A stretch of DNA of 62,975 nt. It comes from an uncultured Anaerolineales bacterium. GTDB taxonomy: Bacteria; Chloroflexota; Anaerolineae; B4-G1. The notes beneath the pieces are model-generated. The model did no database searches, was not told the origin of the DNA, and saw nothing but the letters and a program-made list of their open reading frames with translations. Below are positions 5,218 through 9,872 of the stretch, one piece after another; position 1 is the first letter of the stretch; each line of letters begins with the position of its first letter. The position numbers and the translations under genes are program-made. The stretch covers positions 32,982-95,956 of the forward strand of contig CAYVCX010000004.1 in NCBI GenBank assembly GCA_964450435.1, given 5' to 3'.

Positions 5218-7701
5218 TCACCGCAGCGTTACTACGCGGGCAACCCGCGAACCTCCCGTGTCGACCAGGCGTTTGCCACGCGATCCGCGGGTCATTGAGG
5301 CGATCACCGAGAGATCGTTGATGTGAAACCGCCTGCCATCCTCCAGGTAGACATCTACCGCATACCCTGCTTTGCCAGCAGCCACGTCGCCCAGCTTACC
5401 CCCAGACTTGGACTCGCGCAGACACTGCACACCCTGCGTATTACGACCCTGCACCGAAAACTCCGTGAGCGGCACCCGATTGGCGTAGCCGGTCTCGGAT
5501 ACGACGACGACATGCCACTGAGCTTCCTTCGCGGCGACCTCCGGCACTATCATACCGCCCAGCACGCGGTCACCTTTCCTGAGCGAGATGCCGATGGAGC
5601 CGCTGGCCGTATCTGTCTTCTGCGGGTGAATCTCGCCACCGTCCAGACGGAGCAGCTGACCTTCCCTCGTGTAGAAGATGACGTTGGCGCTGTCATCAGC
5701 AACGCCCCCAAACAGGAGCTGGTCGTCATCGACCAGCCCGATGACCGGTCCCCACTCGCGATCCAGCAACGAGAGGTCACTCACCGCAGCACGCTTCACC
5801 CTGCCGGCTTGCGTGCCGAGAAGCAGATATCCATCCATGCTAATCACACTGATACCCACAATATGCTCATCCGGCGCAAGGCCCAGCTGGCTCGCCGCGG
5901 TGGCGGCCAGGGGAACGAACCCCACCTCCCCCACCCAGCCGGCCCCACGGCTGGTCAGCAGAATCACCTTGTCCTTGGGCGCCGCTCTCACGTGAGCCAG
6001 GTGCACGCTTCGCGCAGCTCTAGTGGTCAATCCCTCGCTCGGGCGATAGGAGAAGCCACTTGCGTCGGAGCGTTCTATGCCGTCCGGGGTGAGGACCAAG
6101 ACCTGGTCGCCTTCCGGCGCCACCAGGTCGGAGCCTGTCATCACCGTGGTGCCAGCGGCCTTGTCCTCGCTGTCCACAATCACCGTACGGCGTGGCACTG
6201 AGAACTCGTCCTTAAGTCTCCCCGTATCCTGCACGACCACGTCGAGGCGGCGGGCCTCCGAGGACAGCAGCTCCTGAAGATGTTCAATCCGCTCTCCCAG
6301 TTCCTTTGCTTCATCCTCCAGGCGGGACCGTCCAAGGGCCGCCAGCTGTTGAAGCTGGGTGTGGAGAATGGCATTAGCTTGCTGCTCTGAAAAGCCGAAC
6401 GTACGTATGAGGTTGTTTCGAGCAGTCCTTGGCTCTCGTGAGCGACGGATGGTTTCAATCACGTCGTCGAGAGCGTCCAGAGCCTTCAGCAATCCCGCGA
6501 CAATGTGGAGCCGTGCCTGCCGTTTTTCCAACTCGTACTGGCTGCGACGTTCAATGACCTCCAGGCGGTGGGAGACAAAGTGAGTCAGAAGCTGGTGGAG
6601 CGACAGGTACGTCGGGCGGCTATCGCCGTCCTGTATGGGCACCAAGGCCAGGTTGATTACGCCAAAGGTCTCACGTAGTTGGGAGTACTTCAACACCTGC
6701 TCAAGGACCTGGTCCGGATCGCCGGTCCGAGAGACCTCGATCACCATACGCATACCGGTGTAGTCGGATTCGTCACGCAGGTCCGTTACACCGGTAATAC
6801 GGCCTCGATGCACTTCCTTGGCGATCTTCTCCATAACCGTGTTTTTCTGCACGTTATACGGCAGTTCCGTCACCACCAGGTTCGATTTGCCGCCGCCGAT
6901 GTCTTCCACGAGGATTCGAGCCTGCGTGACGATCCGACCGCGCCCGGTCTCATAGGCCTCATATACAGTGTCGATCAGCCCGTCGCCACGGTCACGGTAA
7001 CGATATAGAACGCCTCCCGTGGGGAAATCAGGCCCTGGGATAAACTGCAACAGGTCGCTCGTCGTGATCTTCTCCCGCTGGTCCCAGTTACGTGCCACGT
7101 AAATCAAAGCCTCGCACACCTCCCCAAAATTATGAGGCGGTATATTGGTGGACATGCCGACAGCAATTCCGGCGGAGCCATTGACCAGCAGGTTCGGGAA
7201 CACTGCCGGTAGAACAGTCGGCTCCTCAAGGGAGCCGTCGAAGTTCTCCTGCCAGTCCACTGTGTCCATCTCGAGGTCTTGAAGCATGGTCTCAGCGACC
7301 GGTGTCAACCGCGCTTCGGTATAGCGCATCGCGGCGGGGCTATCCCCATCTACAGAACCGAAGTTGCCCTGCCCGTCCACCAGGGGCATCTCCATAGAGA
7401 AATCCTGGGCCATTCGTACCAAGGTGTGGTAGACAGAGGTATCGCCGTGAGGATGGTACTTCCCAAGCACCTCTCCAACGATACGGGCTGACTTCTTGTG
7501 GGGATGCTCTGCGTCCAGCCCCAGCTCGTGCATCGCGTACAGAATACGCCGCTGGACGGGCTTGAGTCCGTCGCGAATGTCGGGCAGGGCACGATCCGTG
7601 ATGGTAGCTCTCGCATACCCCATATAGGCGGCGGTCATGTCGCTGGCTAGATCCACCGTCTCGCTGGGGAACACGATGGTCGAATCGTCGACGTCACTCA
7701 T
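5218..7701 (-). CDS. parC: Type IIA topoisomerase subunit A (GyrA/ParC family; no GyrA-box, Topo IV-like)
   Basis: [32 protein letters not shown] (catalytic Tyr), beta-pinwheel CTD repeats; start taken at MSDVDD. Confidence 0.85.
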
Positions 7702-7751
7702 TCGTTGTCCCGTTATCCTCGATGCCGCAATGCGCACGCTGAAAGCGCATC

Positions 7752-9761
7752 TCAGTCTCCGTTCTCATCCAACACCATCCCATCGCCCCAGTACCGCATC
7801 AGGCGCTCACGCCGCTTTGTCGCGCCAGCGCCCATCCACAGCGAGAAAGCCGCGTTGGCTGCGTGCACATCGTTGGCTTTCACCTGCACAAGGTGCTCGT
7901 TGACCGCCGGGTTTCCTTCTTCGTTCACGCTGAAGATCGTCTCTCGCAGCTGAGCGGGGTTCATCTCCCCCAACCCCTTATAGCGTTGGATAGTGACACC
8001 ACGCATACCGCCCCAGTCATCCAAGATCCGTTTCCGCTCGGCGTCAGTATAGGCATACCTTTCGTCGCTACCTTTGCTCAACATATACAGCGGTGCCTGC
8101 GCCACGTACAAGCGGCCTTCTTCCACTACTGGTCGCATAAGACGCCAGAAAAGAGTGTAAAGCAGCGTCTTAATGTGTTCGCCGTCCACATCGGCGTCAA
8201 CGAGGATGGCAATACGACCATACCGCATGTCTTCCACACCGAAGTCGCTTCCCACGCCGGCGCCGAGAGCGGCAACGATGGCTTTCACTTCCCTGTTGCT
8301 CAGAGCTCGATCGAGCCGCCTTCTCTCGACGTTGAGAATCTTGCCGCGCAGCGGCAAGATAGCGTGATAACGACGGTCACGCGCCTGCTTGCAGGACCCG
8401 CCGGCGCTGTCACCCTCCACAACGTAGAGGGTGGTCATGTTGACTGGCGTCCCTTTCGCCACGTCTGCCAGCTTACCGGGCAGCTCATCGACCTCCAATG
8501 CGGAGCGCCGCATCACCAGCTTGCGTGCCTTGGACGCTGCTCGACGCGCGCGAGAGGCCGCCAAGCACTGTGCGACGATCCTCTTCCCCAGCGAGATTCG
8601 CTTGCCCAGGTGCGCCAAGAGACCTTCATAGACGATTGAATGCACCTGGCCCTGAATCTGATCGGAGCCGAGCTGAGTCTTGGTCTGGCTAGTGAACTGA
8701 GGGTCGTGCATTCGGACACTAAGGACAGCAGTCAGACCAGCTCGAGTATCGCGCCCGATGATCCTGTCCCCCTTCTTCAGCAATCCGCGGCGATTGTCGG
8801 CAAAGACATTGATGGCCTTGGTCAACCCGGCCATCAATCCCGAGACATGTCCTCCGCCGTCGGGTGTGGGAATCGTATTGACAAACGAGACAATCTCAGG
8901 ATAGTCGCCCGTGTGCCACTGGAAGACTGCCTCCACCTGTGTGCCATCCTCACTAGAAACCTTCACCTCGATGGGCTCGTGAAGCACATCCCGGTTCCGA
9001 TTAAGGTGCTCAACGTACTCGACCAACCCGCCCTGATAGCAGTACTCTCGTTCCCTTCCGTCTCCGTGCCTGTCGACGATTCGCGTGGTCAAACCGGGCA
9101 CCAAGAAAGCCACCATCTGCAGACGCCGTGCAAGCGTGGCGAAGTCGAATTCGAGCTCATCCAAGAACTCCCGGTTGGGCAGAAACTCGACCGTCGTGCC
9201 TGTCCCAATGTCTCGGTCTTTGTTCTGCCGGACTGCTGTCACCTCCCCCCGCACGCCCACCTGGCCGACAATCTCCTCGCTATGAGGGGCCAGGATATTG
9301 ACCGGCGTGACTGGCAAGCCCCGCTCGTGCCGCTGCCGGTACAGGACTCCGTCGCGCCGGACGGTCACCACCAGCCAATCCGATAGGGCATTTGTGGCCT
9401 TGATGCCCACGCCGTGCAGACCACCGGAAGTTGAGTAGCTGCCTTCTTCGAACTTGCCGCCGGCATGAAGCTCGGTAAATGCCAGTTCCATCGTGGGCTT
9501 GTTCTTCTCAGGATGCATCCCCACCGGGATTCCGCGCCCGTTGTCGGTGATGGCGATGCTTCCGTCGTCCCGAAGCACGACTTCTATACGGTCACAGTAC
9601 CCCATCAGTGCCTCGTCCACTGCGTTGTCGATGACCTCGATGGCCAAGTGGTGCAGGGCTGTCATGCCCCGCCCCCCGACGTACATCCCTGGCCTTCGCT
9701 GGATGTTCTCCGGGTAGTCGAGGACCTTGATGTCTTCCTCGGTGTAGGCTACCTTTGCCAT
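7752..9761 (-). CDS. parE: Type IIA topoisomerase subunit B (GyrB/ParE family)
   Basis: [73 protein letters not shown] before ATG 9761. Confidence 0.88.
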
Positions 9762-9843
9762 GACCATCCTCCGACCCAGCGTCCGCCGGGCCAAACCCCT
9801 CCGTGTAGGGTCTGTACCCCGCAGACTTAAGTTAACCGCACCT

Positions 9844-9872
9844 AGTATAGCACATTTGTTCTACTTGGTCAA
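9844..9872 (-). promoter_or_regulatory. Sigma70-type promoter of the topoisomerase operon with an embedded LexA (SOS) box
   Basis: Minus strand reads TTGACC-N17-TATACT; AGAACAAATGTGCT (9849-9862) fills the spacer and is one mismatch from AGAAC-N4-GTTCT. Confidence 0.8.

Follow-up and report, generated by a model that had tools for sequence, protein, structure and literature searches.

Operons for topoisomerase IV (Topo IV) under the control of the SOS repressor LexA have been described in several bacterial phyla, as set out in the sections of the reports cited here and below. In Staphylococcus aureus, a single transcript spans parE and parC, its parE promoter carries CGAACGTACGTTTG as a LexA box, and gyrase stands outside LexA control (PMC11442139). 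The parC/parE operon of Bacteroidetes was predicted by comparative genomics to be an SOS member and was induced by mitomycin C in quantitative reverse transcription PCR (RT-qPCR) assays, and topoisomerases were suggested in the same report to be a recurring component of the response (PMC8565304); parEC is predicted to belong to the LexA regulon of Lactobacillaceae (PMC3616900), and parE of S. meliloti is cited as SOS-regulated (PMC3323433). The window analyzed here, a stretch of 62,975 nucleotides (nt) from an uncultured Anaerolineales bacterium (Chloroflexota, class Anaerolineae), holds at 5218-9872 two adjacent minus-strand genes for the B and A subunits of a type IIA topoisomerase, with a LexA-type box in their promoter. 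A first description of this DNA, made from its letters and referred to below as the sequence-only reading, had proposed an accessory enzyme induced by DNA damage and had counted gyrase and Topo IV among genes that do not typically belong to LexA regulons. The published cases contradict the latter statement and, because they place LexA control of parE-parC in other phyla, the arrangement itself is already known and it is the phylum that is new. The parEC operon of B. subtilis is likewise said to have been reported as a LexA target by Au et al. in 2005, and LexA binding has reportedly been studied in Dehalococcoides.

The second strand of background concerns the GyrA-box, Q(R/K)RGG(R/K)G, which lies in blade 1 of the C-terminal domain (CTD) of GyrA and whose loss abolishes supercoiling but not decatenation (PMC8216471). 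The sole type IIA topoisomerase of Aquifex aeolicus belongs to the gyrase lineage, has a CTD without the GyrA-box and acts as a Topo IV (Tretter et al. 2010, via PMC8216471), while the ParC CTD of Geobacillus (B.) stearothermophilus (PDB 1wp5) has six blades, no GyrA-box and a close resemblance to the gyrase CTD (PMC8216471). LexA control of the Aquifex enzyme is not mentioned in the cited sections of PMC8216471, and no search was aimed at it. In a limited search of the open-access literature nothing was found on LexA-controlled Topo IV or on GyrA-box loss in Chloroflexota, and supplementary tables of SOS comparative-genomics papers may list targets from this phylum. Taken with the comparisons presented below, these precedents make it likely that the window encodes a LexA-repressed operon of the parE-parC type, the product of which would be a gyrase-derived, GyrA-box-less enzyme acting in the Topo IV role beside a canonical gyrase.

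The operon promoter and its LexA-type box

The operon is preceded, as the sequence-only reading had stated, by a consensus-like minus-strand promoter of the form TTGACC-N17-TATACT, found at 9872-9844 and ~80 nt upstream of the B start codon. Its -35 hexamer TTGACC (9867-9872) was read directly and is also listed by the promoter scan, and orthologous promoters of the same spacer type keep TTGAC at the corresponding position. The 17-nt spacer, AAGTAGAACAAATGTGC, leads to an extended -10 element, TGC-TATACT (9844-9852, minus strand), with the hexamer at 9849-9844 and the TG at 9852-9851 flagged by the scan, in which the promoter as a whole has 10 of 12 matches. Within 4900-10100 the scan returned 2 promoter-like sites against 1.7 expected from shuffled sequence. 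The predicted LexA-type operator, AGAACAAATGTGCT (9849-9862, minus strand), was correctly described as filling the spacer up to the -10 and as one mismatch from AGAAC-N4-GTTCT. The last T of the box is the first T of the -10 hexamer, and the TG within the box is the TG of the extended -10.

A LexA protein is encoded in the genome, with a score of 162.9 bits to TIGR00498 (cut-off 110.95) and the Pfam domains LexA_DNA_bind and Peptidase_S24. Its own promoter reads TTGACA-TAGAACGTATGTTCT-TATATAAT, and here too the operator lies in the spacer. The gene is present in all 41 relatives, and a box stands at most 220 nt upstream of it in 26 of the 30 relatives' loci that were fetched; G018, G021, G022 and G036 have none within that distance. 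The lexA box of G039, AGAACAAATGTGCA, is identical in its core to the operon box, and the GTGC half-site is thereby found at the promoter of a gene that is presumably autoregulated. To place the operon box among other sites of the genome we used a position weight matrix (PWM) built from 33 boxes of lexA loci in this clade. The operon box scores 18.8, with seven sites higher and one tie, and ranks 8th-9th in the 3.1-Mb genome. The neighbors of the high-scoring sites comprise a Y-family polymerase resembling imuB (IMS and DUF6504 domains), lexA itself, a methylpurine glycosylase, a radical-SAM/helix-hairpin-helix protein and RadA, and several further high-scoring boxes adjoin small open reading frames (ORFs) with no Pfam match. 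Five distant genomes that carry the operon all have lexA, and all six of their lexA loci have boxes, scoring 16.2-20.8. High-scoring boxes lie at C102:6550, C3:60940, C32:24058, C5:55449, C47:11520, C9:22137 and C122:1881 of the genome's contigs; two boxes beside small ORFs lacking a Pfam match also use the GTGCT half, and one box is 374 nt before a LuxR-type regulator.

The box recurs upstream of orthologous operons. The orthologous B gene was located in 35 genomes of 10 families, 19 of them in the window's family and 16 in nine others of the class, and the best PWM site was taken from the 400 nt upstream of it in each genome. Conservation of the box, proposed as a check on the sequence-only reading, is borne out: a site scoring 12.4-20.6 is present in 34 of the 35, against a background of 0.0044 per 400 nt in this genome, where 34 sites reach 12.4 or more over 3.1 Mb. 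In the 35th genome, G009, a stretch of Ns begins where the upstream gene ends and extends into the B gene, and for that reason this genome no longer counts as a candidate for lacking the box; in G001, G004 and G006 the contig breaks off before the promoter, and the promoter comparison covers none of the three. Upstream of canonical gyrA and orphan parC-like genes, by contrast, no score exceeds 9.3 in the 37 of 40 regions that could be scored, and the regions upstream of the genome's own gyrA and gyrB reach 1.0 at most.

Across the 34 boxes, half-site positions G2, T11, C13 and T14 are invariant, and A3, A4, C5 and G10 are kept in 33, while the four central positions vary. Two architectures are seen. 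In 22 genomes the box occupies the spacer, with its end inside the -10, and 21 of these have GTGCT as the right half. In the remaining 12 it directly follows a TATAAT or is placed elsewhere, with right halves of GTTCT (10 genomes), ATTCT (1) or GTGCT (1). The GTGCT half in promoters of the spacer type can be understood from the need of the extended -10 for TG, and its near restriction to promoters where that TG is needed fits a LexA site better than a site for another factor that binds AGAAC/GTGCT. It is from the two architectures and the variability of the central positions that the argument from conservation draws its real weight. On these comparisons the predicted control of the operon by LexA is well supported, and we regard it as probable.

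Several points weigh against this interpretation. One-mismatch matches to AGAAC-N4-GTTCT number 3 in the window against 1.02 expected, and 10 of 100 shuffles also reach 3. The match of the box is by itself not beyond chance within the window, and it is position and conservation that give the box its weight. (The other matches of this kind, at 370-383 and 21902-21915, both have G+C-rich centers.) Constraint on the promoter could account for part of the conservation in the spacer, because the box takes in the TG as well as the first T of the -10; the genomes compared are kin, so that their counts overstate independence; and the training set of the PWM holds one lexA box with GTGC, which slightly favors the operon site. 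The sequence-only reading had proposed to test whether the box matches those of lexA and recA, and the match holds for lexA but fails for recA, which has no box within 500 nt upstream (C41:11865-12365; best PWM score -5.4). As recA is a classic LexA target, the absence is unusual for an SOS system and indicates either that the regulon is atypical or that the motif model is incomplete.

An alternative is that AGAAC-N4-GT(G/T)CT serves a regulator other than LexA, or is simply promoter spacer that has been conserved: the link to LexA is drawn from sequence, part of the box doubles as the extended -10, and recA lacks the motif. Throughout the order and the class, however, lexA promoters have this motif at the same position; it also adjoins the imuB-like gene and other repair genes, and it returns to the LexA consensus GTTCT when it lies outside the spacer. 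Promoter spacers, moreover, are normally not conserved in sequence, yet the box is kept where the intergenic DNA that flanks it has diverged among the orthologs. We therefore give a site unrelated to LexA only a very slim chance.

Subunits, the GyrA-box and the C-terminal domain

The B subunit, of the ParE/GyrB type by Pfam and NCBIfam, has 669 residues from the ATG at 9761 (7752-9761, minus strand), within an ORF whose longest form begins at TTG 9794. The A subunit, assigned to the ParC/GyrA type from the same databases, has 839 residues from the GTG at 7737 (5218-7737, minus strand); its start is more likely the ATG at 7701, and its orthologs align from residues 7-13 onward. Between them the two proteins hold a full type IIA set, with HATPase_c, DNA_gyraseB, Toprim and DNA_gyraseB_C in the B subunit and DNA_topoisoIV and DNA_gyraseA_C in the A subunit. 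Neither reaches the curated equivalog cut-offs for gyrase or Topo IV. The A subunit falls below the NCBIfam gyrA cut-offs (757 versus 902 and 734 versus 877 bits) and below the ParC equivalogs (parC_Gpos, 556 versus 813; parC_Gneg, 501 versus 629), and passes one model alone, the generic subfamily NF004044 (697 versus 654). The B subunit is likewise below the cut-offs for gyrB (680 versus 882 bits), parE_Gpos (560 versus 900) and parE_Gneg (502 versus 723). We infer that the pair is Topo IV-like in function but lies outside the Gram-positive and Gram-negative ParC/ParE lineages.

Blade 1 of the A subunit reads SYRPSEG (residue 564, nt 6048-6031), whereas the canonical GyrA encoded on contig C52 has QRRGGRG at the aligned position, in agreement with the GyrA-box loss that had been claimed. 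The 5-residue gap at the place of RGGRG (SYR-----PSEG) is common to all 24 clade members aligned. The claim of about six CTD blades also stands in a predicted structure, although Pfam detects a single DNA_gyraseA_C repeat here against six in the canonical GyrA, and for this reason the blade count is taken from the model. The AlphaFold model of the CTD (5221-6222, minus strand), computed with 23 sequences, has ~24 strands in six blades, with a predicted local distance difference test (pLDDT) value of 81 and a predicted template modeling (pTM) score of 0.81, and suggests a six-blade β-pinwheel with the GyrA-box deleted from blade 1. In Foldseek comparisons, template modeling (TM) scores by target length are best to six-blade GyrA CTDs (0.77-0.81) and are 0.70 to the ParC CTD 1wp5 and to Aquifex 3no0; the model is a prediction, and ring closure and DNA wrapping lie beyond what such a model can tell. 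By the published criterion (PMC8216471, in the sections cited above), an A subunit without the GyrA-box is predicted to be Topo IV-like. The enzyme would thus be a gyrase-derived type IIA topoisomerase that decatenates and relaxes DNA rather than supercoils it.

A near-consensus GyrA-box-like sequence, QGRGGQGV, is present in the last CTD blade of many clade members and of some orphan ParC-like proteins; in the A protein of the window the corresponding stretch (approximately residues 745-757) is a degenerate QGRNTQGV.

The affinities of the two proteins point the other way. Against solved relatives the A subunit scores 500 bits to GyrA and 408 to ParC, and the B subunit scores 503 bits to GyrB, whose chains are its best matches, and 480 to Topo IV; by sequence the nearest solved proteins are thus gyrases, with Gram-positive Topo IV not far behind. 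Since the subunits are closer to solved gyrases, and since the pair is the sole type IIA pair found in 14 related metagenome-assembled genomes (MAGs) described below, supercoiling by the enzyme is possible. It may then be that LexA control is real but that the product is a working gyrase from an unusual lineage, one that wraps DNA without a canonical GyrA-box and would give the cell a second, SOS-inducible gyrase. Among the gyrase and Topo IV models, too, both subunits score best with those of gyrase; the predicted CTD, a pinwheel with all six blades, finds its closest fits among GyrA CTDs; and a need for gyrase is generally assumed in bacteria (PMC8216471, sections as above), a point that bears on the 14 relatives. 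Set against this, the GyrA-box is deleted in every member examined, its deletion or mutation abolishes supercoiling, and the box-less Aquifex protein of the gyrase lineage acts as a Topo IV (both from the same sections of PMC8216471); both subunits, furthermore, remain under the NCBIfam gyrA and gyrB cut-offs. A supercoiling enzyme is on this balance unlikely, and we continue to read the operon as encoding an enzyme of the Topo IV type.

Two trees of A subunits were built by quick LG+G4 searches without bootstrap. The first placed the window's clade as sister to the order's orphan ParC-like clade with a support of 94 in the Shimodaira-Hasegawa-like approximate likelihood ratio test (SH-aLRT), a placement that was lost once class-wide members were added. 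In the second, which omits a long-branch Anaerotalea row, an A fragment (G166, 557 residues) and G198 (no A gene in the locus), three A-subunit clades meet at one node and no sister-group claim is made; the window's type forms one fully supported clade of 31 rows, the branching of which does not follow family labels.

Around the operon, a ribosome-binding site GGAGGA (9767-9772, minus strand) lies 5 nt before the ATG of the B gene, and an Rfam scan of the leader and intergenic region (9600-10100) gave no match at E values up to 1. The upstream neighbor (9950-11005, minus strand) is a metallohydrolase of the CehA/McbA family (PHP-like), its stop codon followed by a GC-rich hairpin; its 3' end is kept beside the operon in most same-genus loci that reach that far.

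Type IIA complement of the genome and its relatives

The genome (3.1 Mb in 131 contigs, 95% complete) contains, as the sequence-only reading had anticipated, a separate canonical gyrase, with gyrA on contig C52 (1101 bits) and gyrB on contig C25 (931 bits). The two genes are unlinked and both are above the NCBIfam cut-offs. No type IIA pair other than this gyrase and the window pair was found in the genome. As the only non-gyrase type IIA enzyme present, the window pair is therefore assigned to the Topo IV role rather than to that of a third, accessory enzyme.

A survey of 48 genomes of the family with the gyrA model gave three score classes: canonical GyrA at 986-1133 bits, an orphan ParC-like A subunit without GyrA-box at 894-935 bits, and the window's type at 683-762 bits. 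Of the two lower classes, the window's type was seen in 21 genomes and the orphan in 20, no genome having both, and genomes with the orphan type have a single GyrB-like gene. Most relatives in the order (e.g. G013-G016, G019, G021, G022 and G025-G040) have two A subunits, a canonical GyrA and the GyrA-box-less orphan, encoded by genes that are not beside a B gene (example loci L109, L111, L113, L115-L117, L119, L121, L123-L125 and L129); in these relatives one B subunit may serve both A subunits. As a separate observation, the match to canonical gyrB in G036:C236, G081:C20 and G116:C128 is split in frames of 1197-1231 residues and reaches the cut-off only with neighbors in frame, so that these genes look intein-containing.

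In other genomes the window-type pair appears to stand by itself. Five family members (G017, G020, G049, G058 and G059; 88-97% complete) have only this pair, and neither canonical gyrA nor gyrB was found in them. Among 15 genomes of five other families, nine (G071, G088, G104, G126, G132, G150, G164, G184 and G209) have exactly one A and one B gene, both of the window's type, and the remaining six have canonical genes and none of the window's type; one genus is found in both states. There are thus 14 sole-pair MAGs from six families, 86-97% complete, in which no canonical gyrA, gyrB or orphan parC-like gene was found (example loci L169-L171 and L175-L183), and in the five sole-pair relatives tested for it no reverse gyrase scored above the cut-off. 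All of these are MAGs, and in about a fifth of the family no gyrA is detectable; incompleteness nevertheless does not readily account for an all-or-none pattern that involves two or three genes that are unlinked. It is possible that the sole-pair relatives are gyrase-less bacteria. In two of them, G020 (L049) and G017 (L050), a second promoter-like element, TGGTAAAAT, lies ~100 nt downstream of the LexA box and before the B start, and may serve as a LexA-independent promoter where the pair is the sole type IIA enzyme.

This distribution bears directly on the accessory enzyme of the sequence-only reading, a damage-specific topoisomerase silenced by LexA and dispensable in normal growth. The overlap of the operator with the core promoter and the coexistence of a canonical gyrase in the genome would both suit such an enzyme. 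The genome, however, holds no other Topo IV-like enzyme; the window's type and the orphan ParC-like A subunit replace one another in the family survey rather than occur together; a dispensable role is incompatible with the 14 MAGs in which no other type IIA pair was found; and an operator that is consistently imperfect, at a promoter close to consensus, suggests substantial basal expression. An accessory role is accordingly unsupported and looks quite improbable. Instead, from the genomes compared, the pair looks like a housekeeping enzyme that is also under SOS regulation.

A broader proposal can be made tentatively, and we rate it as plausible though somewhat short of probable. The B-A operon may belong to a separate lineage of type IIA topoisomerases without a GyrA-box, one that spans the Anaerolineae, moves together with its LexA-operator promoter and is able to take the place of the resident GyrB, GyrA and orphan ParC-like subunit. 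It would then be the sole type IIA enzyme of 14 or more MAGs, and the organisms would be either gyrase-less or supercoiling by a route independent of the GyrA-box. That some relatives seem to have no canonical gyrase is a more surprising lead than the operator and has the larger potential value: if the proposal is true, there are further gyrase-less bacteria besides Aquifex aeolicus, or supercoiling can proceed independently of the GyrA-box, and the only type II topoisomerase of the cell is wired to the SOS response.

Proposed regulation and comparison with known systems

The arrangement of the promoter suggests how the operon could be regulated. A strong sigma-70 promoter (TTGACC, 17 nt, TG-n-TATACT) would carry the LexA operator of the clade in its spacer, and a LexA dimer bound over the spacer and the extended -10 would block RNA polymerase. 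Upon DNA damage, self-cleavage of LexA stimulated by RecA would raise transcription of both subunits, and the additional enzyme could help to unlink and resolve intermediates of recombination and of replication that has been repaired or restarted. In the GTGCT half-site the LexA consensus may have yielded in part to the TG that the extended -10 requires, and with an imperfect half-site at a near-consensus promoter repression would probably be incomplete, with basal expression sufficient for a housekeeping gene. Whatever goes beyond the anatomy of the sequence and its conservation, namely binding by LexA, induction after damage, the activity of the enzyme and leaky repression, is inferred. In the one metatranscriptome run considered (word share 0.06), the matches were short contigs of other organisms, mostly <90% alike and over conserved parts of the genes, with nothing of use at the promoter, and are uninformative on expression.

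If LexA does act here, SOS control of a Topo IV-type enzyme extends to Chloroflexota, which supports the published idea that topoisomerases are a recurrent SOS component and not a Firmicute oddity (PMC8565304, in the sections cited above). The locus would also be a clear-cut case from nature in which operator and extended -10 are fused and the promoter explains the sole deviation from the operator consensus.

On the side of the enzyme, the closest parallel is Aquifex aeolicus, which also has a gyrase-lineage enzyme without a GyrA-box and, as seems to hold for the 14 relatives, no other type IIA enzyme; the window's own genome differs in having a canonical gyrase as well. The ParC CTD of G. stearothermophilus (1wp5) shares six blades, predicted by model for the window's protein, and the lack of the GyrA-box, but the identity between the two CTDs is only ~21%. 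On the side of regulation, Bacteroidetes likewise have a Topo IV operon under SOS control of the LexA type, although LexA there is non-canonical, with the motif CTAA-N5-TTAG, and induction has been demonstrated (in the cited sections of PMC8565304), whereas the window operon is known from sequence. The parE-parC operon of S. aureus resembles the present one in its single promoter for both subunits, in a one-mismatch box of the GAAC-N4-GTTC type and in a gyrase outside LexA control (in the cited sections of PMC11442139), matched here by the absence of the box at gyrA and gyrB. The present operon differs in belonging to the Chloroflexota and in an operator that is fused to the extended -10 and conserved across the whole class Anaerolineae, and because its proteins fall below the Gram-positive ParC and ParE cut-offs it represents a lineage independent of the S. 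aureus type.

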